64,000 nt of DNA, from contig JAZQJB010000108.1 of the NCBI GenBank assembly GCA_045541375.1, positions 4,680 through 68,679 on the forward strand, in the 5' to 3' direction. Source of the DNA: Eubacteriales bacterium (GTDB lineage Bacteria > Bacillota > Clostridia > Oscillospirales > CAG-272). The notes under the pieces are model-generated. The model was not told the DNA's origin and ran no database searches. It worked only from the letters and a program-made list of their open reading frames with translations. Of the stretch, positions 130-51,075 are shown in pieces; within the stretch, counting starts at the first letter, position 1, and each line of letters begins with the position of its first letter. Made by a program: the position numbers and the translations under genes.

Positions 130-1437
130 ATGAAGAAATTTATAATATCGTTATTTGTCATTTTTGCGACGCTGCTACACTCCTGCACCCCAGTAGATGC
201 TGGAGAAAAAAACATATCGACCAATACCGATGCGGTGACAGAGGAGGAAAAAAAGATGCTGACAGTTGTTGCTGACGGCAAGACCGAGTTTGAGATAATA
301 CGTCCCGATGAAATGGACGGCATTAGATCGCATCTGTTTACGTCTTTTTATAAGGAATTTAACGAAAGATACTCTTGCGATATCGAAAGCAAGTCGGATA
401 TCCTTGCATTGGTTTATAAGGTCGATCCAAATGCAAATGAAATTCTCCTTGGAGACACCAACAGGGATGCATCTGCTGTCCTTAAAGAAAAACTCACCAC
501 AGCCGGTGGAAACCGATTTGGCATTATGGCGACGGATTGCAAGATAGTCATCAACGGAACAGGTTGGTATCAATGCTACCTTGCTCTTGATTATTTTTTT
601 AATAATTTTGCATCCGTTGATGAAAGCGGACAAGTTACAGTTTCGGTCGAGTGCGGATTTGAGTATATTTCAGAGCAATGCGATGATGTAGAATATACCA
701 TCGAAGAGCTTATATCGAGCGGAAAAGAAATCGCCTTTGCCGCAACAGAAAAGGTTTTGAAGTTCCAGAATAAAAACGGTGCCGGTACCGTTCAAGGTGG
801 CTGCACCGACGGAAAATACGTTTACGCAGGTATGATGGGGAAGGGCGAGGACGGAGTAGAGTTTGGAGTTATCTCCAAATACGATCTGTCAACGGGCGAG
901 TTGATCAAATATTCCGAAAGGCTTCCCCTATTTCATACAAATGATCTGACGTATGACGCGAAGAATAACAGGATAGTCATAGCGACGCTTGACGCCGGCT
1001 GGACTCGTCTTTCCTTTGTTGATGCCGATACGCTTGAATATCAAGGGGACTTTATTGCGCCTGTAGGTATCCGAGGACTTGAGTATCTGCCCGAAACGAA
1101 TCAGTATGTCGCTGCGGGCTTCGATATTGAGATCATGCTTCTTGACGAGAATTTCAACAAGCTATCCTCGCATATCTGTAAGGATCAGACTCTTATGACG
1201 CAGGGGCTTTATTCGGACGGCAAGTATGTTTACGATCCGCGTTATCTTGAGGGCAGAGCGGTACACCTGATGGTTGTCGAGGATATGGACGGAAATCTTA
1301 TTTCAAGTGCAAGTATTTTCGGACTTTCGACAGCAGAACCCGAGCACATGTACCGCTTGAACGGTGATCTGTATATCGGCTGTAACCACTCCGGATGGCT
1401 GTTCAAGATTGAAGTGATACCGCAGAATTGGTGGTAA
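130..1437 (+). CDS. secreted lipoprotein, function unknown (N-terminal shared module plus beta-propeller-like C-terminal region)
   Basis: Long ORF with a strong RBS. Signal peptide with lipobox LLHSC. No catalytic motif recognised. The N-terminal module resembles those of the lipoproteins at 19822 and 31406. Confidence 0.6.
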   Translation: MKKFIISLFVIFATLLHSCTPVDAGEKNISTNTDAVTEEEKKMLTVVADGKTEFEIIRPDEMDGIRSHLFTSFYKEFNERYSCDIESKSDILALVYKVDPNANEILLGDTNRDASAVLKEKLTTAGGNRFGIMATDCKIVINGTGWYQCYLALDYFFNNFASVDESGQVTVSVECGFEYISEQCDDVEYTIEELISSGKEIAFAATEKVLKFQNKNGAGTVQGGCTDGKYVYAGMMGKGEDGVEFGVISKYDLSTGELIKYSERLPLFHTNDLTYDAKNNRIVIATLDAGWTRLSFVDADTLEYQGDFIAPVGIRGLEYLPETNQYVAAGFDIEIMLLDENFNKLSSHICKDQTLMTQGLYSDGKYVYDPRYLEGRAVHLMVVEDMDGNLISSASIFGLSTAEPEHMYRLNGDLYIGCNHSGWLFKIEVIPQNWW

Positions 1438-1444
1438 GAAGAAA

Positions 1445-1475
1445 CCCGACACATCAAAAGTGTGCCGGGTTTTTT
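1445..1475. terminator. bidirectional hairpin terminator between convergent genes
   Basis: CCCGACACA / TGTGCCGGG stem followed by a T-run on the + strand, sitting between stop codons at 1437 and 1477. Confidence 0.6.
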
Positions 1476-1476
1476 A

Positions 1477-3651
1477 TTATCTGCGTTTTTTGATTATGAT
1501 TGCTTCAAGTGCAAAGAGCCCGAACAATGCGATCGGTGATGTTATTGCACCGCATCCTCCGGAGTTTGCGGGTTCGGTCGCCTCGGGAGCCGTTGTCATC
1601 TCGGGTGCGGGAGTAACTGCGGGCTCGGTTGCTTCGGGGGTGTCGAGGGATGTTGTAACCTCTGCTTCTGTTGTCGTTTCGGCGGTTTCTGTCTGTGTGT
1701 AGCTTACGAGGAACTGTGCCGAGGATACCCACTCGCCCGTTACGAAGTTTCTGCCGAGAACCGCGATCTTATCCTTATAAATGCGGATATAGTAACCCTC
1801 GCTGCCCGTCTGATGCTCACCGGTAACGATGTCGTATGAGTGCCAGAGATATGCCACCGACGAGGTGTTGAAGATCTTCGCGTTCTTGCCCTCGTACATA
1901 CAGTTGTCGGAATCGAGGATCCAGTGTGTATGACCGTTGAAGAACATGACCTCGGGATATTTGTCGATAACTGTCTTGAGCTGTGCGTAATTGGTGATTC
2001 CGCTCCATCCCTCTGCCTGGCTGCTGCCCGATGTGGTATTCAGCATCGGCTGATGATGGAAGATGAATATCGGTCTGCCGTCGCGGTTTTCATTGATCTT
2101 TTCCTCGAGCCATTGGAGCTGTGTCTGTGTCAGACGCGAGGCGCCCGTGTTTTCGGAGGCGAGGAAGATATAATGGTAGCCGTTTACCCAAACGTCGTAG
2201 TAGGGCTTATCGAAGGTGTTTCCGTCGGGGAAGTTAAGGTTTTCGAGGAACTGCTTGAGTCCCGCGTCATAGTTCGTTCCTATATATTCGTGGTTGCCGA
2301 TACCAAGATAGATGGGAGGAGCATCTTTTACGGAATCGTAATGTTTTTTGAAATATGTCCAATAAGAAGGTTCATCTCCGCGGTCAACATTGTCACCAAC
2401 GGTAAAGATACCGACGGAATTCGGACTGTTCTTGACAACGTCATTCAGCATACCGATGAAGTGCTTGCTGTATTCGTTCGAGGAATCGCCCTTGATATGA
2501 ATGTCGCTGACGATCTGGAATTCGGAGATTACTTCGCCGAATCCCTTTGAAGCCGCACCTTCGGGGAGCTTGACTTCAACACATTTTTCCGAAAGACCGT
2601 TGCTGTCGTTATAAGTGTAAATGAGAAGTTTGGTCGCACCCTCCGGGATGATGGTGTTGGGGGTCATTTCGTGAACAACGGTGGTCCCCGTGACTTTGAA
2701 ACGTGCAAGGCGTGTGTAGCCCTCAAGCTTGCCCGCATCGTTTGCCCACCACATATAAATATCATCGGCGCAATGATCCTCGGGAAGGGTGATGGTCAGA
2801 GTGCCGTCAGCCATGCCGTCGGTTGCATTTTTGAGCTTGTAATCGGCAGAGAGGGGAGCTTTCGCGATCTTCGACGGGTCTTTCACAACCTTGATATCGA
2901 GCGAAGCGAGCGCGATACCGATGCCGTTTTTGCCCGTAAGATCATCCGGGATGATGTAAAGGGTGTATTCACCTTCGGGCAGACCGAAATAGTCGGACAT
3001 CGAAGAGCCGCTATGAGATGCGTGCTTGATGTTGAAGGTTTCGTTCTTAACGTCGGAAATATAATCCCAATAGATAGAAGGACCTACGTAACCCTTGGGG
3101 AAGATACCGATCCAGTCCTTGCCGCCCGAATTTTTGCTTCCTGCTATTACCCACACGGGCTCGCCGACGAAATATTCGGTCTTATCGGTGACGATGTAAG
3201 TATCCTTGTCGGGAGGAGTAAGCGTGGGAGTTTTTGTTTGATCAGAGATTACGGTTATATCGATCGATGCGAGCCTCTTGTCATAACCGGATTTGACACT
3301 GTGATCGTCGGGAATGATAAAAACGGTATATTCACCTGCAGGAAGTGAATACAGATTTTCACGGTTTTTGCCGAGTCTGGTTGCTGTACGGATATCGAAA
3401 TCCGCTCCGATCTCTGTAAGGTAGTTCCAACGGATCGAAGCACCCGTTGTATCTCCCTTGACGGTGATACCCACCCAGTCCTTGCCCGAAGCATTCGTGC
3501 TTTTTGCGTTGACGATGATGGGCTCACCTTCATAATAAGTCGTTTTGTCGGTCGTAAGCGTAGCCGCGCTGTCTGCCGATACCGGAAGAATGGCAGAAAG
3601 AGCCGTTAAAGCGATTGCTGTGAGCAGAGTGATTGCTGTGAACTTTTTCAT
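1477..3651 (-). CDS. secreted calcineurin-like metallophosphoesterase with two N-terminal ~115-aa repeat domains and a C-terminal hydrophobic anchor
   Basis: 724-aa ORF with a signal peptide. Metallophosphoesterase motifs GDNVDRGD, GNHE, HHQP and GHTH. T/E/P-rich linker, then SGGCGA, a hydrophobic helix and KKRR at the C-terminus. Confidence 0.8.
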   Translation of the reverse strand: MKKFTAITLLTAIALTALSAILPVSADSAATLTTDKTTYYEGEPIIVNAKSTNASGKDWVGITVKGDTTGASIRWNYLTEIGADFDIRTATRLGKNRENLYSLPAGEYTVFIIPDDHSVKSGYDKRLASIDITVISDQTKTPTLTPPDKDTYIVTDKTEYFVGEPVWVIAGSKNSGGKDWIGIFPKGYVGPSIYWDYISDVKNETFNIKHASHSGSSMSDYFGLPEGEYTLYIIPDDLTGKNGIGIALASLDIKVVKDPSKIAKAPLSADYKLKNATDGMADGTLTITLPEDHCADDIYMWWANDAGKLEGYTRLARFKVTGTTVVHEMTPNTIIPEGATKLLIYTYNDSNGLSEKCVEVKLPEGAASKGFGEVISEFQIVSDIHIKGDSSNEYSKHFIGMLNDVVKNSPNSVGIFTVGDNVDRGDEPSYWTYFKKHYDSVKDAPPIYLGIGNHEYIGTNYDAGLKQFLENLNFPDGNTFDKPYYDVWVNGYHYIFLASENTGASRLTQTQLQWLEEKINENRDGRPIFIFHHQPMLNTTSGSSQAEGWSGITNYAQLKTVIDKYPEVMFFNGHTHWILDSDNCMYEGKNAKIFNTSSVAYLWHSYDIVTGEHQTGSEGYYIRIYKDKIAVLGRNFVTGEWVSSAQFLVSYTQTETAETTTEAEVTTSLDTPEATEPAVTPAPEMTTAPEATEPANSGGCGAITSPIALFGLFALEAIIIKKRR

Positions 3652-3688
3652 GTCTTTTCTCCTTGCTGTGTTTATTTTGAATTGAATT

Positions 3689-4165
3689 TCAAGACTCTTT
3701 GATCCGTTTTCCCGTTATATGCTCGGGTACGAGCTCAAGGCAAAGGGTGTTTTTGCCGAAAGATGCTATCTCTTTTTCAATATATTCGCTGTCGTCGGTG
3801 AATTTGAAGCTTAATTTGCGGCAAATATCCATTGCTTTGTCGAAGTCCTCAACGATTTGAATCCTTCCGAAAACGATGATGCTTTTTATATTCAGAGCCC
3901 AATCTCCGTCGTTGCGATAACCGCTGTCATAAACGCAGAAGGAAGCCTTGTTGCACGCTCGGAGAGCATCGACCTTGTGCCCCGACTTGCCGCTGTGGAA
4001 GTATATGTGCCCGTCATCTTCGTTATAGTAATAATTGATCGGAACACCATAAGGGTATCCGTCGTCGCCGATCAAGGAAAGCACGCCGCGAGGCTCGTTT
4101 TTCAGTATTTCTTTACATTCATCAAGCGTGAGAGCTTGCTTTTTTCTTACTATTTCTCTGAACAT
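3689..4165 (-). CDS. pyridoxamine 5'-phosphate oxidase family FMN-binding protein (NimA-like)
   Basis: 158 aa. The N-terminal pattern (LTLDECKEIL...GVLSLIGDDGYPYGVPINYYY) and size are typical of the PNPOx-like split-barrel family. Confidence 0.65.
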   Translation of the reverse strand: MFREIVRKKQALTLDECKEILKNEPRGVLSLIGDDGYPYGVPINYYYNEDDGHIYFHSGKSGHKVDALRACNKASFCVYDSGYRNDGDWALNIKSIIVFGRIQIVEDFDKAMDICRKLSFKFTDDSEYIEKEIASFGKNTLCLELVPEHITGKRIKES

Positions 4166-38656: not shown

Positions 38657-38791
38657 TAAAGTAATATTTATTATATTTTATCATAAAAAAGTATTTTTAG
38701 CAAGAGAAATGGAGATTTTTTTGAAAATGTGATGACATTTTATCGTTAATATGATATAATTAAGTTAATAAGAGCTTGAAGGAGAACTGTG

Positions 38792-39703
38792 ATGCAATAT
38801 CTTAAATCATTTACTTTGCCTACCGATGCGGATGAACTTGATTATTTGTTCGGTACAAGTTCGATGGGCAAACTGACAAAACTCGATATGCAGTGCTATG
38901 CCTCGAATCAGTATCCTTTCGGCATCTTTCCCCATAAAAAGCTCTCGAAGATCGAGTTTGAACCGATAACGATCTTTTATGGCGGCAACGGCTCGGGCAA
39001 ATCGACTCTGCTCAACGTGATCGCGGAGAAGCTGAAACTTGAACGTACTGCGCCGTTTAATAATTCGCCGATAATTGACGATTATCTTAATTTTTGTGAT
39101 TACAGATTAAGCTATGGAACTCCGTATCTCCCCGACGGAAGTTCGATAATCACGAGCGACGGAGTTTTTGATTATCTTCTCGATATCCGCGCGATAAACG
39201 AGGGCATCGACCGCCGCCGTGAGAGCATTCTTGAGGAATACGAAAGCCTTCGCGGCGAACTCACCCACAGCGGCTGGCAGATGAAGAACCTTGAGGATTA
39301 TGAGGAGCTGCGCAAGAGAAACGAGATCAGAAAAGGCACAAAATCGCAGTATGCCGCCCGTCGCCTCGGAAATACCGAATATAGGATGCATTCAAACGGC
39401 GAAAGTGCTTTTGCATATTTCACAAATAAGATTGGCTCAAACGCACTCTATCTTCTCGACGAGCCGGAAAACAGTCTTTCGGCGAAATTACAAAGGGAGC
39501 TTGCTGTATTTCTCGAAGAAGCTGTGAGATTTTACGGCTGTCAGCTCGTTATTTCCACTCACTCGCCTTTTCTACTTTCTCTGCGCGGAGCAAGGATCTA
39601 CGACCTCGACGGCGCCCCCGCTTGCGTAAAGCATTGGAGCGAGCTTGAGAACATCCGCGCTTATTACGATCTTTTCGAGAGCAGAAGGCGCGAATTTGAG
39701 TAA
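38792..39703 (+). CDS. stand-alone ABC/SMC-like AAA ATPase
   Basis: Walker A GGNGSGKST, signature-like SNGES, Walker B LYLLDEPENSLS, H-loop STHSP. No partner gene on either side. Confidence 0.7.
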   Translation: MQYLKSFTLPTDADELDYLFGTSSMGKLTKLDMQCYASNQYPFGIFPHKKLSKIEFEPITIFYGGNGSGKSTLLNVIAEKLKLERTAPFNNSPIIDDYLNFCDYRLSYGTPYLPDGSSIITSDGVFDYLLDIRAINEGIDRRRESILEEYESLRGELTHSGWQMKNLEDYEELRKRNEIRKGTKSQYAARRLGNTEYRMHSNGESAFAYFTNKIGSNALYLLDEPENSLSAKLQRELAVFLEEAVRFYGCQLVISTHSPFLLSLRGARIYDLDGAPACVKHWSELENIRAYYDLFESRRREFE

Positions 39704-39749
39704 AAACAAAAATATTTTCAAAATTCTTCGGTTTTTTTCGATTTACCTA

Positions 39750-39778
39750 TTGACAAATGCTTCAATTTGTGGTATTAT
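39750..39778 (+). promoter_or_regulatory. sigma-A type promoter of the tRNA operon
   Basis: TTGACA at 39750-39755, 17-nt spacer, TATTAT at 39773-39778, about 30 nt before tRNA-Gly. Confidence 0.6.
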
Positions 39779-39809
39779 ATTAGGGCGGTTTTGAAAGAGA
39801 CCGAAATAT

Positions 39810-39883
<74 letters not shown>

Positions 39884-39933
39884 TAGGGACAGAATGAATG
39901 TCATCGGACATTCATTCGTACCCCTGATATGAT

Positions 39934-40010
39934 GCGCCTTTAGCTCAGCCGGATAGAGCAACTGCCTTCTAAGCAGTAGGCCGGGGGTTCGAGTCCCTCA
40001 AGGCGCGCCA
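39934..40010 (+). tRNA. tRNA-Arg (anticodon UCU), CCA encoded
   Basis: Acceptor GCGCCTT/AAGGCGC, D-arm GCTCAGCCGGATAGAGC, anticodon loop CTTCTAA, T-loop GGTTCGAGTCC. Confidence 0.9.
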
Positions 40011-40015
40011 TATAC

Positions 40016-40093
40016 GGTGGGTGTAGCTCAGTTGGTTAGAGCGTCAGGTTGTGGCCCTGAAGGCCGTGGGTTCGAATCCCATCATTCACCCCA
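40016..40093 (+). tRNA. tRNA-His (anticodon GUG) with encoded G-1 and CCA
   Basis: Extra 5' G, acceptor GTGGGTG/CATTCAC (two G-U pairs), anticodon loop TTGTGGC, T-loop GGTTCGAATCC. Confidence 0.85.
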
Positions 40094-40135
40094 TAAAGAA
40101 ACAGCACTTCGCATCGCGAAGTGCTGTTTCTTTAT
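40093..40135 (+). terminator. perfect 20-bp hairpin abutting the tRNA-His CCA (possible operon terminator or processing signal)
   Basis: ATAAAGAAACAGCACTTCGC-atc-GCGAAGTGCTGTTTCTTTAT. There is no clean downstream T-run, so terminator function is uncertain. Confidence 0.45.
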
Positions 40136-40434
40136 GGGGTGAACGCTGCGCTTACGATTCGAACCCACTACAAGTTGCCCCGCAACTTGTTCAGCGTGCG
40201 CGGAGTGCGCATATCAAGTTTCGTAGGCATTTACGCGCACGCATGGGTTCAGAATCCCATCATTCACCCTTCGCATCGCGAAGTGCTGTTTCTTTATGGG
40301 GTGAACGAATCGTTTCACGATTCGAACCCACTATGAGTTGCTCTGCAACTCATATAATTTGCGCGTAGCAGGCATAAAGAAGTTTGCACAAGTTATACGC
40401 GCAAATGTGGGTTCAGAATCCCATCATTCACCCC
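40108..40434. repeat. two tandem diverged ~162-bp units, each bounded by inverted tRNA-His 3'-end-like sequences
   Basis: Unit cores at 40136-40269 and 40298-40434. GGGGTGAACG..CGATTCGAACCCA at the left ends, TGGGTTCAGAATCCCATCATTCACCC(C) at the right ends. The 3' half of the hairpin is duplicated at 40270-40297. Confidence 0.8.
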
Positions 40435-40443
40435 TACCGGGGA

Positions 40444-40516
40444 GATGCCATACATTCTTCGAATGATTCCATACCGCGAAGGCGGATTCCATACGTCCTC
40501 ACGGGCGATTCCATAC
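40444..40516 (+). repeat. four direct GAT(T/G)CCATAC 10-mers at 20-22 bp spacing (iteron or arm-site-like)
   Basis: Copies at 40444-40453, 40465-40474, 40485-40494 and 40507-40516, about 130 bp upstream of the ECF sigma start. Confidence 0.75.
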
Positions 40517-40643
40517 ACAGCGGTGCTGTGATTTGATAGGTGAAAATTTGCCTTGCGAATTTTTTCAATTTTTATGCAACGGAATTATCCAAAATGCAAC
40601 TATATAAGTGAAGGGCTCTTACAAAGACGAAAGGAGGACTGAA

Positions 40644-41201
40644 ATGACGGATGAAAGATTGATTGAAATGTTCCTCTCGCGTGACGAGGGGGCGATCGCG
40701 GCGGCAGAGGAGAAGTACTTGCCGTTCTGCCATTCGGTGCTCTCGAACATTCTGCCGAGCAGGGAAGATCGCGAGGAGTGCATCAACGACGCTATGCTTG
40801 TGCTTTGGAACACCATCCCGCCCGAGAAGCCCGCGAGCTTTTCGGCGTATCTTGCAAAAATTCTCAGGACCATCGCGCTTGAACGCACACGCCGCGAAAA
40901 CGCTTGGAAACGCGGCGGACGAGTGCTCACGGTCGGCGAGGAATTTCTGCGCGATATAACCGACGGCAGAACTCTTGCGGATGACTACGAATCGAGCCAC
41001 GCGGGAAAGATCATCAACGAATTTCTCGAGGGACTGCCGAAGAATGACAGAAAGGTCTTCATTCTGCGCTATTGGTTCGACGAGGACATCTCGCGCATCG
41101 CGGTGCGTATGAATTATACCGAAAGCCGCACGAAATCTTTACTTAAACGCCTGCGCGACAGGCTCAGACTCAAACTCGAAAAGGAGGGAATAGTGGTATG
41201 A
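40644..41201 (+). CDS. ECF-type RNA polymerase sigma-70 family factor
   Basis: ATG 40644 lies 5 nt after AGGAGG. Region 2 (ERLIEMFLSRDEGAIAAAEEKY...) and region 4 HTH (ISRIAVRMNYTESRTKSLLKRLRDRL) are present. Confidence 0.75.
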   Translation: MTDERLIEMFLSRDEGAIAAAEEKYLPFCHSVLSNILPSREDREECINDAMLVLWNTIPPEKPASFSAYLAKILRTIALERTRRENAWKRGGRVLTVGEEFLRDITDGRTLADDYESSHAGKIINEFLEGLPKNDRKVFILRYWFDEDISRIAVRMNYTESRTKSLLKRLRDRLRLKLEKEGIVV

Positions 41202-42490
41202 CTGAAAAATATACCGAAGACAAAAGACTCCTCGGCGCACTTGACTACATTGACGACAAATTTATAGCGGAAGTTACTGATGATTATGAGATCTTTGATT
41301 ACGTCGGCAAACCAACCCGAAAAATGCGTTTACGCATTGCAAGGCAATATCTTGTTTATGCCGCGTGTCTTGTTCTTCTCGCCTGCGCAATGCCTATCGT
41401 AAGCTATATTGTACCGCAGATAGGAGAACTGTTCGGAGGCAACGCAGGGAATGTCGGAGACACTGAAACCCGGGACCTTGACGGTTTCGCAGATATGTCG
41501 GAGCGCGATCTTATTGAGCATATCGGTAAAGTTCCCAAAGAATTTAAAGATATAGTTCAAAATAATGCATTCAAAAGATGCTTTTATTCGGGAGATTACA
41601 TTTTTTCCTTTCCCGCTGACAGCAAAGACAGTGAGATCATAGTATTTGATAAACAATGCGAAGTTGTTGATATTATTAATTCAGAAAACGGAGTCGGCGT
41701 ATTTGGTTCTTACAGAATATATAGGTTATCTGACGGCAATTATGTTAAATTGGGGTCATATAGTTCGTATTATCGGTATATGGCTGACAGTAATACGAGT
41801 GAGCGCAAAGAAACTAAGGCATCCGTCGAAAAAATTACATCTGACGGGAAAACTGTTTTTAAAACGGAATTTGATATCCGAAACGATCTTGATTTTTTTT
41901 GCGAACTTGATGACGGATATGTAATTGCCGGTTGGGAACAAAGGTGGAGCGATACAGAAAACCAAAAGTTTTATATTTATAAACTTGATAAGTCGGGTAA
42001 TATAGTTCACCAGAAAGCGATGAGTGAAGGTATATGTAAAATGGAATGCATTGACGGTGAATTGGTCATTTATACTCGACATAGACAATTTGTCGAAAAA
42101 AAGTTTAAGGATGTATATCGTAAGCAGTATCTTGATGATTCGTTACTAATGAGATCTACCATTGATACTTTAGAACCCCCTGCTGAGTATTTGATCATAG
42201 AAGACTTTATCCCAAATTTCGATGCCGGATATGTTTCTTCGGTTATTTATTACGACGATTTTGTCCTAATTATTTCTGAACACAATACGAAGTGGTTTGA
42301 ATATGTACCGATGGTTTACAGCTCAATTCCGTCATACACCGAAACAGTCTACACAGCTTACACCTACGGCGCTGAAATAATCTGGCGCAGCGCGGTGGAT
42401 TCTACCGACTATGAAAGATTGGCAAAAGTCAAAAAAGAGTATGAAGAAGAACAGGAACGCTTCAAAAAATGGAAAAGTGAAAACGAATAA
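41198..42490 (+). CDS. anti-sigma-like single-pass membrane protein with a large extracytoplasmic domain, function unknown
   Basis: ATGA overlap with the sigma gene. Cytoplasmic N-terminal ~45 aa, TM helix (YLVYAACLVLLACAMPIVSYIV), ~350-aa AT-rich-encoded outer domain. Confidence 0.5.
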   Translation: MTEKYTEDKRLLGALDYIDDKFIAEVTDDYEIFDYVGKPTRKMRLRIARQYLVYAACLVLLACAMPIVSYIVPQIGELFGGNAGNVGDTETRDLDGFADMSERDLIEHIGKVPKEFKDIVQNNAFKRCFYSGDYIFSFPADSKDSEIIVFDKQCEVVDIINSENGVGVFGSYRIYRLSDGNYVKLGSYSSYYRYMADSNTSERKETKASVEKITSDGKTVFKTEFDIRNDLDFFCELDDGYVIAGWEQRWSDTENQKFYIYKLDKSGNIVHQKAMSEGICKMECIDGELVIYTRHRQFVEKKFKDVYRKQYLDDSLLMRSTIDTLEPPAEYLIIEDFIPNFDAGYVSSVIYYDDFVLIISEHNTKWFEYVPMVYSSIPSYTETVYTAYTYGAEIIWRSAVDSTDYERLAKVKKEYEEEQERFKKWKSENE

Positions 42491-50889: not shown

Positions 50890-50959
50890 AATAAAAACCT
50901 CCCTTCGCAAACAGTTTGACTGTGCGGCGGGAGGAAACAAAAATATTTCCCGTAGCAAC

Positions 50960-51060
50960 AGCGGGATGCGGATCACCCAAGCGAGCTTTTTTTGTATTAG
51001 CTCTTATCCCACACGGCAACTCCCCGTCCATGTGTATTTTAACGCAGGTTTTCCTACTCT
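50960..51060 (-). ncRNA. THF (tetrahydrofolate) riboswitch aptamer
   Basis: Minus strand reads AGAGUAGGAAAACCUGCGUUAAAAUACACAUGGACGGGGAGUUGCCGUGUGGGAUAAGAGC...GCUCGCUUGGGUGAUCCGCAUCCCGCU. As I recall it, the Eubacterium siraeum THF aptamer has the same blocks (AGAGUAG, GCGUUAA, the GGGA-containing hairpin loop, GCAUCCGCU) in the same stem order. A small hairpin plus U-run and an anti-SD-like CCUCCC follow. Confidence 0.75.
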
Positions 51061-51075
51061 GTTCACAATAGTAAT

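Follow-up and report, generated by a model that had tools for sequence, protein, structure and literature searches.

Two tandem structured units were found directly behind tRNA-His, the last tRNA gene of a Gly-Arg-His operon, in a 64-kb stretch of DNA from a Eubacteriales bacterium (contig JAZQJB010000108.1). This stretch is referred to here as the window and all coordinates are those of the window, whereas labels such as L007, L009 and L018 denote related loci. Each unit starts with antisense copies and ends with a sense copy of the tRNA-His 3′ end, and its ends close a fold of several hairpins. We lean, somewhat beyond even chances, toward the reading that the units are a trailer element of the tRNA operon resembling the RtT repeats of Escherichia coli, under selection for structure and probably acting as RNA. 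The first unit (alpha type) and the second unit (beta type) are paralogues within a conserved, undescribed family, which we take, with a similarly slight preference, for the Clostridia counterpart of E. coli RtT.

Anatomy of the two units

The preliminary description of this DNA, made from the letters alone, had placed two tandem units after tRNA-His, and both were present, at 40136-40269 and 40298-40434, respectively. The order of parts was the same in the two units: GGGGTGAACG, an insert of 10-11 nt, GATTCGAACCCAC, hairpin A, stem B and TGGGTTCAGAATCCCATCATTCACCC. Hairpin A has 9 bp and a 3-nt loop, and stem B has 9-11 bp around an interior of 28-31 nt. The antisense copy of tRNA-His was identified as GATTCGAACCCAC (40156-40168 and 40319-40331), the perfect complement of tRNA positions 40066-40078, and the sense copy as TGGGTTCAGAATCCCATCATTCACCC, which is the tRNA-His 3′ end with one additional A in the T-loop. 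This 26-mer occurred exactly twice (40244-40269 and 40408-40433), compared to a chance expectation of none. The start-to-start spacing of the units was 162-164 nt, and a segment of 39 nt was 100% identical between them (40107-40145 and 40269-40307). Tandem Repeats Finder reported nothing for the region because the unit interiors are only approximately 75% alike. The internal hairpins and long-range stems were found as described earlier, and the units differ on both sides at two pairs of the first hairpin and at three pairs of the second stem. Folding of the region compared to shuffled sequences gave z scores of -12.7 on the + strand and -9.7 on the - strand.

No tRNA or tRNA pseudogene (RF00005) was called by ARAGORN or Rfam on either strand at 40094-40440. 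The earlier statement that no credible open reading frame explains the region held only in part, as open reading frames of 71 and 105 codons cross the region. In relatives, one reading frame was open through the alpha-type units and was not kept in the beta-type unit. A coding role, such as a tpr-like small protein, was considered and found unlikely, as the frame is not kept in the beta unit.

The hairpin reported at 40093-40135, with a perfect 20-bp stem and a 3-nt loop, was present as stated, but it is part of a longer perfect palindrome, whose arms of 28 bp each (40085-40112 and 40116-40143) enclose the 3-nt loop. Since its left arm reaches 40085, the last 9 nt of tRNA-His, CCA included, lie inside the palindrome. 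It looks like a two-way intrinsic terminator running into the tRNA, and its A-tract and T-tract would make termination possible in either direction. In relatives, the center of the palindrome differs and the palindrome itself is kept, being perfect over 28-30 bp in most genomes. The left-arm remnants of later palindrome copies have other lengths in relatives.

A family of units behind the last tRNA of the operon

Genomes representing 185,579 species, one per species, were scanned with a pattern consisting of an antisense T-arm, 55-85 nt and a sense T-arm. The scan returned 61 loci, approximately half of which were false positives caused by same-strand tandem tRNAs with the self-complementary T-arm GGTGGTTCGAACCCACC. 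The true loci, one per genome, came from Clostridia metagenome-assembled genomes (MAGs) of yak, sheep, goat, cattle and other guts. Further loci were fetched by synteny through the neighboring sigma-factor gene; homologues of the sigma factor with 54-68% identity (P0020, P0025, P0039 and P0053) were paralogues with no adjoining tRNAs.

A covariance model of the unit core (R1) recognized 31 units in loci of approximately 20 relatives, all of them in ruminant or other gut Clostridia assemblies, and over the 64-kb window it found only the two known units. Every R1 unit lay directly 3′ of the last tRNA of the operon and on the same strand, or at a contig end formed by an assembly break. The upstream tRNA was tRNA-His of Gly-Arg-His operons, or tRNA-Ala(cgc) in L033 and L063. 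The synteny of ATPase gene, Gly-Arg-His operon, units and sigma-factor gene was kept down to 70% identity of the sigma factor (L074). Stem B is GCGTGCGCG in the alpha type and ATTTGCGCG in the beta type. The order alpha then beta was found in the window, L018, L029 and L054, and other genomes carried a single type or three units. The number of units varied from one to at least three among close strains. Logan contigs contained 164-bp skips and back-joins, with strains differing by one unit, and in other strains the variable inserts had been exchanged between units.

No Rfam family was found over the units in the window or in 18 related loci, and at E values up to 10 only spurious microRNA-type matches on the palindrome appeared. 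The exact 25-mer of the 3′ arm was found on no viral contig and on one metagenome contig of the Joint Genome Institute (L007). No match to the unit core pattern was found on viral (IMG/VR) contigs, and blastn of the unit against phage and plasmid collections gave no match. A looser pattern, GGGGTGAA-gap-GATTCGAACCCAC, gave six chance matches on viral contigs, which were rejected as ordinary minus-strand tRNAs.

Conserved pairing and covariation

The earlier claim that the two ends of a unit can pair was borne out, since the closing helix formed in every unit folded alone. Each unit then consisted of this long helix and a three-way junction with hairpin A and stem B. In the closing helix, antisense GATTCGAACCCA pairs with sense TGGGTTC-A-GAATC and the extra A is bulged. 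In many units there is also an outer helix, in which the acceptor-derived GGGGTGAA pairs with TTCACCCC.

In an R1-guided alignment of 29 distinct sequences, covering 30 pairs and 814 pair cells, standard pairs were present in 97.2% of the cells and changes on both sides occurred at 13 of the 30 pairs. Hairpin A was 100% paired, with eight of its nine pairs covarying. None of 500 shuffles matched any of the measures, and when partners were slid by 1-3 columns the pairing fell to 12-48%. Stem B covaries though its arms are 28-33 nt apart, and the loops and the stem-B interior drift freely. Distant members carry unlike stems at the same places, namely TAATTTGC/GCAAATTA in L074, CCATGCGC/GCGCATGG in L014 and CAAGTCCGCC/GGCGGCTTG in L033. 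The outer arms of L033 have co-evolved away from tRNA-Ala, with a change of CTCCA to CTACA that is matched by TGTAG. In the loci found by synteny, the 3′ arm GGGTTCAGAATCCC was still invariant and C-to-T or A-to-G changes in the 5′ arm retained G-T pairs (L069 and L099). In L074, an extra G in the 5′ arm stands opposite the bulged A.

Similar arrangements behind other tRNAs

A second family was noted behind tRNA-Lys of Gly-Arg-His-Gln-Lys operons (L015, L032, L061 at 2605-3238, and L022) in MAGs of Oscillospiraceae and related groups. Its layout comprises GATTCGAACCCACGG, covarying hairpins with a GAA loop, a perfect copy of the tRNA-Lys T-arm, acceptor strand and CCA, and a terminator. In L061, the Lys-type units alternate with units of another type, which are closed by GGGGATTCG/CGAATCCCC. 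In L022, an integrated island (587-3960) carries an AbiEii toxin gene, a tyrosine integrase gene (2482-3750, - strand) and GTGTCAACA arm-type repeats. A displaced tRNA 3′ fragment is located at approximately 3920-3960, and a terminator and a Lys-type unit (4008-4112) follow directly after it.

A second tRNA-Ser or tRNA-Lys 3′ end approximately 100 nt downstream of the gene was seen in L039, L051, L062, L067, L056, L065, L048 and L024. The hosts were Methylobacterium, Rhodoblastus, Hyphomicrobiales, Elioraea and an Actinomycetota MAG. These look-alikes have a TTCGAACCCAC piece and a GC-rich hairpin in between and match no Rfam family; a call of the tRNA gene itself was obtained for six of the eight loci, the exceptions being L056 and L065.

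Strand, terminators and RNA coverage

Inside soundly aligned helices, the non-Watson-Crick cells were all G-T on the + strand, in approximately six separate events. They were located in the closing helix in L099, L069 and L007 and in hairpin A in L057, L073 and L033. A-C cells were confined to the pairs that end a helix, either next to the junction or on the outer side. Judged from these sequences, the G-T pattern leans toward the + strand. In the promoter scan, the - strand had a single, weak promoter-like site at 40612-40584, upstream of the sigma-factor gene.

A strong + strand terminator was always found between the units, with the hairpin array that follows them, and the promoter-like motif of the sigma-factor gene, which is the layout expected if the stretch past the first hairpin is transcribed. 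In the window, the terminator-like hairpin at 40543-40575 would close the tRNA-plus-units stretch before that motif, and GCGGATTTTTTT-type equivalents were present in L009, L018, L029, L073, L090 and L091. The hairpin array lies between the units and this terminator; behind every GAT(T/G)CCATAC copy in it comes a small short-looped hairpin, a different one each time. At the same spot, relatives have 1-5 copies of a hairpin plus GTGATAT or GTGAAAT, and the array always ends with a GTGAAGGTAAAAA-like sequence and the strong terminator. The GAT(T/G)CCATAC array would be carried on the same transcript as the units.

The Lys-type array of L061 was covered approximately 10-200x in four RNA libraries, compared to 0-3.5x in most bins of the 2.4 kb downstream of the array, where isolated bins reached 18x (contigs are unstranded). 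Another stretch of high RNA depth in L061 (4273-4539) was considered as an RNA gene and rejected as a low-complexity repeat-coding stretch.

Proposed origin and mode of action

The earlier suggestion of a tRNA-derived structured RNA, noncoding and co-transcribed with the operon, is the best fit, given a fold conserved in approximately 20 genomes, a single locus behind the last tRNA and the RtT layout; the co-transcription itself would depend on read-through. An origin at the DNA level through inverted and tandem duplication is likely. The tRNA-His 3′ end would have been duplicated in inverted orientation across the terminator hairpin and in direct orientation further downstream, and unequal crossing-over between the direct copies would have made and unmade tandem units. 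Transcription of the units on the + strand would take place when RNA polymerase continues past the hairpin that follows tRNA-His, and the transcript would end at the strong terminator. The modules might then be cut from the primary transcript by tRNA-maturing nucleases, as reported for RtT. The product could be a small structured RNA, or a stalk with a processing or insulating role.

Several observations weigh against such an RNA element. The closing helix had no double-sided changes, only one-sided ones, and its constancy was in part imposed by the search pattern. The outer acceptor-derived arm was absent in L009, L029b, L054a and L091/94/95, and several units end after GAATCCC, so a tRNA-like 3′ end is not a conserved feature. 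Several of the aligned sequences are close relatives, and the pair cells are therefore not independent events. Moreover, through template switching in replication, a single event is able to alter the two arms of a hairpin together, and hairpins can arise and be kept up in this way (PMC8794818); double-sided changes are thus no proof of selection. For this reason, the earlier description of the compensatory changes as the signature of selection for secondary structure was too strong. Mean folding energies were -43.9 on the + strand and -43.0 on the - strand, and those of the alignment fold were -34.5 and -33.2, respectively; with such a negligible gap, folding energy is not usable for the choice of strand. 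In three metatranscriptomes, the depth of the unit contig equaled that of the flanking genes and of the promoter region (contigs again unstranded), so that DNA carry-over is possible. Read-through would be limited by the hairpin right after tRNA-His, which has the look of a working terminator. No promoter was found inside the units, by eye or by the promoter scan.

A bolder reading, which we consider quite unlikely, is that the unit core represents a tRNA-end cassette able to relocate, or else a T-arm switch RNA. The idea of a cassette comes from the presence of the same core (closing helix, hairpin A, stem B and the fixed extra A) mostly behind tRNA-His, but behind tRNA-Ala(cgc) in L033 and L063, with outer arms adapted to the local tRNA in each case. 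A gene-less element that passes from one tRNA operon end to another through recombination in the T-arm would be in keeping with such a pattern. The idea of a switch comes from the invariant 3′ arm, GGGTTCAGAATCCC, which can fold into a T-arm-like hairpin or, alternatively, pair up in the closing helix. Such a two-state RNA could be read by T-arm-binding enzymes or by tRNA-targeting toxins. If either idea were true, the units would, together with the Lys-type family, RtT and the tRNA-Ser and tRNA-Lys look-alikes of Alphaproteobacteria, form a widespread and unrecognized class of trailer RNAs derived from tRNA 3′ ends.

Alternative explanations

The strongest rival, which we hold to be on the whole unlikely, is that the units are neutral by-products of DNA metabolism. 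A snap-back or template switch at the terminator hairpin would have produced an inverted duplicate of the tRNA 3′ end, and unequal crossing-over of the direct copies would have made the array, with no function. The stems would stay perfect because template switching re-copies one arm from the other. Its account of the origin is probably right. It would explain the perfection of the first palindrome in most genomes despite a differing center, the left arms of later palindromes trimmed in various ways as for unstable long palindromes, the gain and loss of whole units among close strains, seen as 164-bp skips and back-joins in Logan contigs, and the inserts swapped between units of other strains. 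The 3-nt loop of hairpin A is a geometry that favors template switching (PMC8794818), and the same layout recurs in unrelated sequence behind other tRNAs and in other phyla. In contrast, pairing was maintained at 97-100% over the 29 distinct sequences while the loops and the stem-B interior drifted, and stem B covaries in spite of the distance between its arms. The alpha and beta paralogues keep the fold in several species, in which they persist in the same order, and a homologous core is kept at two tRNAs, His and Ala. The analogous Lys-type array was covered by RNA libraries well above its downstream flank. Pairing of this degree in two paralogues, across species and at two tRNAs is not easily explained by a neutral by-product.

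That the units are miniature, gene-less integrative elements or remnants of attachment (att) sites, left by site-specific integration into the tRNA 3′ end and made tandem by repeated integration, appears improbable, and the stacked att scars proposed earlier found little support. Direct copies of the tRNA 3′ end flank every unit, as in the classic attL/attR picture, and the core stands behind tRNA-His or tRNA-Ala depending on the genome, with outer arms that match the local tRNA. The tyrosine-integrase island of L022 ends in a displaced tRNA 3′ fragment adjoining a related unit, indicating that such integrases act at these tRNAs; this island, however, is located outside the unit and has arm repeats, GTGTCAACA, that bear no relation to the unit. 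In the window, approximately 6 kb downstream and 4 kb upstream of the units contained no integrase, and neither the unit nor its 3′ arm was found on any phage, plasmid or IMG/VR contig. The extra A is a fixed feature of all units and none of the tRNAs has it, so the copies are not being exchanged with the tRNA. A test of attB-core identity accordingly failed, all His- and Ala-type units having TTCAGAAT compared to TTCGAAT in the tRNAs. Moreover, att arms that bind proteins are not expected to covary as hairpins. A small RNA of the - strand, transcribed toward the tRNA operon and stopped by the two-way palindrome at 40085-40143, is highly improbable in our judgment. The A-tract and T-tract of the palindrome allow termination both ways, the - strand folds nearly as well as the + strand, and there is the weak - strand promoter-like site at 40612-40584; but the G-T cells of the helices would become A-C mismatches, in the second palindrome copy the left arm is gone, with no T run on the - strand, and RtT, the known analogue, is on the tRNA strand. 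Hardly any credence is given to a miniature inverted-repeat transposable element (MITE), a transposon of the non-autonomous kind whose terminal inverted repeats would come from the tRNA. A 75-nt core is indeed flanked by imperfect terminal inverted repeats of approximately 30 nt, and a true MITE-like insert is present at this spot in L069, L054 and L088. The MITE-like element proposed earlier nevertheless fails on copy number, with a single locus per genome and no dispersed copies: there were only two adjacent copies in the 64 kb and none elsewhere in approximately 265 kb of related loci. No target-site duplication was seen in the flanks inspected, where the direct repeats are the tRNA-end copies, and the units always have the same place and orientation behind the tRNA.

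Locus and neighboring genes

The features of the locus are listed in Table 1; tRNA genes were called with ARAGORN and Rfam. The sequence of the promoter-like site of the tRNA operon was kept in L069, L073 and L074, and in the same three loci the ATPase gene was syntenic upstream of the operon. The promoter scan gave a second + strand promoter-like site upstream of tRNA-Arg. The motif ATGCAACGGAAT..TGCAACTATATAAGTGAAGGG in front of the sigma-factor gene was also present in L009, L018, L029, L069, L073 and L090-L095, and probably acts as promoter or operator for the sigma factor itself.

Between the unit and the sigma-factor gene, L069 carries a MITE-like insert of approximately 440 bp (about 1080-1500) with terminal inverted repeats of approximately 50 bp (GGTGTCCCCTCATCACCCGC...GAGAAGCC and complement). 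The insert was also seen in L070, L054, L088 and L089. Its presence in relatives and absence from the window mark the spot as an insertion hot spot. Elsewhere in the window, a tetrahydrofolate (THF) riboswitch aptamer (RF01831, 52.6 bits) was found at 50957-51063 on the - strand.

The host is uncultured and its habitat is the goat or sheep gut, and approximately half of the sampled words of the window were present in DNA runs of that kind. The window organism was not found in the sheep and cattle runs tried, and L018 was not found in the bovine runs tried or in X25.

Table 1. Features at and around the units, in window coordinates
Feature	Position	Strand	Basis or score
AAA_21/AAA_15 ATPase gene, 304 aa, immediately 5′ of the tRNA operon	38789-39703	+	
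tRNA-operon promoter-like site, TTGACA-17 nt-TATTAT, TG-extended	39750-39778	+	promoter scan, 11/12 matches
tRNA-Gly(tcc)	39810-39883	+	ARAGORN, Rfam
tRNA-Arg(tct)	39934-40010	+	ARAGORN, Rfam
tRNA-His(gtg), CCA encoded	40017-40093	+	ARAGORN, Rfam
Palindrome left arm: last 9 nt of tRNA-His, A-tract, GC-rich stem	40085-40112		
Palindrome right arm: complement of left arm, ending in TTTCTTTAT then GGGGTGAA	40116-40143		
Unit 1 (alpha type)	40136-40269	+	R1 model, 117.5 bits over 40155-40258
Unit 1 outer 5′ arm GGGGTGAACG	40136-40145	+	
Unit 1 variable insert	40146-40155	+	
Unit 1 closing-helix 5′ arm GATTCGAACCCAC	40156-40168	+	
Unit 1 hairpin A, 9 bp, loop CCC	40170-40190	+	
Unit 1 stem B, 31-nt interior	40194-40202 / 40234-40242	+	
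Unit 1 3′ arm, tRNA-His 3′ end copy with extra A	40244-40269	+	
Second palindrome copy (remnant): left arm trimmed to TTCGC, loop and entire right arm kept	40270-40297	+	
Unit 2 (beta type)	40298-40434	+	R1 model, 113.4 bits over 40318-40422
Unit 2 outer 5′ arm	40298-40307	+	
Unit 2 insert, with its own small hairpin	40308-40318	+	
Unit 2 closing-helix 5′ arm	40319-40331	+	
Unit 2 hairpin A	40333-40353	+	
Unit 2 stem B	40357-40367 / 40396-40406	+	
Unit 2 3′ arm, copy of tRNA 3′ end	40408-40434	+	
Array of four direct copies of GAT(T/G)CCATAC, spacing 20-22 nt	40444-40540	+	
Intrinsic-terminator-like hairpin and long T run	40543-40575	+	read from sequence
Conserved promoter-like motif ATGCAACGGAAT..TGCAACTATATAAGTGAAGGG, 5′ of the sigma-factor gene	40574-40617		
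Extracytoplasmic function (ECF)-like sigma-factor gene	40644-41201		
430-aa protein after the sigma-factor gene, no Pfam domains	41198-42490		

Comparison with known systems

In gene-less elements bounded by att sites, such as the cis-mobilizable elements (CIMEs) of streptococcal integrative and conjugative elements, and in the displaced tRNA fragments of genomic islands, direct repeats of a tRNA 3′ end bound a piece of DNA, and tandem arrangements are possible. The units described here differ from these in their length of approximately 160 bp, in a fixed extra base and in an interior that covaries as hairpins, and no recombinase partner was identified for them. The small RNA genes rrA, rrB and rrF are described in PMC8144298 as lying between dual terminators at the ends of E. 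coli rRNA operons. They share with the present locus a short structured stretch between the first and the second terminator of a stable-RNA operon, and offer another precedent for RNAs made by read-through where such operons end, but they are single copies without tRNA-derived arms or any sequence relation to the units, and in our case it is inferred that the first terminator is read through.

The closest likeness is to RtT (rttR/tpr region; 178-bp repeats). As presented in PMC4986893, RtT has been known for decades from the tyrT operon of E. coli and was first detected as an RNA released from the transcript of that tRNA operon (citing Bosl and Kersten 1991); the same source and 10.1101/2024.07.17.603846 link it to the response to amino-acid limitation. 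Its Rfam family, RF00391, is built on enterobacterial sequences. In E. coli tyrT-tyrV, four RF00391 copies were found with 133-138 bits; one separates the two tRNA-Tyr genes and the other three follow them. At the start of each copy stands GGGGAAGGAT, which is antisense to the 3′ region of tRNA-Tyr, and at its end AATCCTTCCCCCACCACCA, and the consensus fold of RF00391 is closed by this same GGGGAAGGAT/AATCCTTCCCCCACCACCA pairing. Both systems are thus tandem units of 160-180 bp in the trailer or spacer of a tRNA operon, on the tRNA strand and in variable copy number. Both have a copy of the upstream tRNA's 3′ end at the unit end and its antisense at the start, and these ends close a multi-hairpin fold.

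In contrast, the RF00391 model had no match in the window at the gathering score (45 bits), none at 39700-40700 at E values up to 10, and none in 18 related loci. The present units derive from tRNA-His or tRNA-Ala in Clostridia, and RtT derives from tRNA-Tyr in Gammaproteobacteria. The antisense arm corresponds here to the 5′ strand of the T-arm plus the loop, and in RtT to the 3′ strand of the T-stem plus the acceptor. The sense copy contains one additional A and usually ends without the final A of CCA, and the first unit is fused to the tRNA through the 28-bp perfect palindrome, which E. coli does not have. A conserved tpr-like open reading frame is absent here.

The architecture itself is not new, but its building plan (antisense and sense tRNA 3′ end, a multi-hairpin fold, repetition behind the last tRNA) recurs independently in a distant phylum at a different tRNA, with a preservation of pairing far clearer than one genome could show. 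Either a common mutational route at the ends of tRNA operons may create such folds repeatedly, or the folds may serve stable-RNA operons generally, in processing, in insulation or as a small RNA. For annotation, the units are a recurrent unannotated feature that can be mistaken for att sites or tRNA pseudogenes. The new families provide comparative material for the question of what RtT-type elements do; the units share the plan of RtT and yet are not members of RF00391 by sequence.

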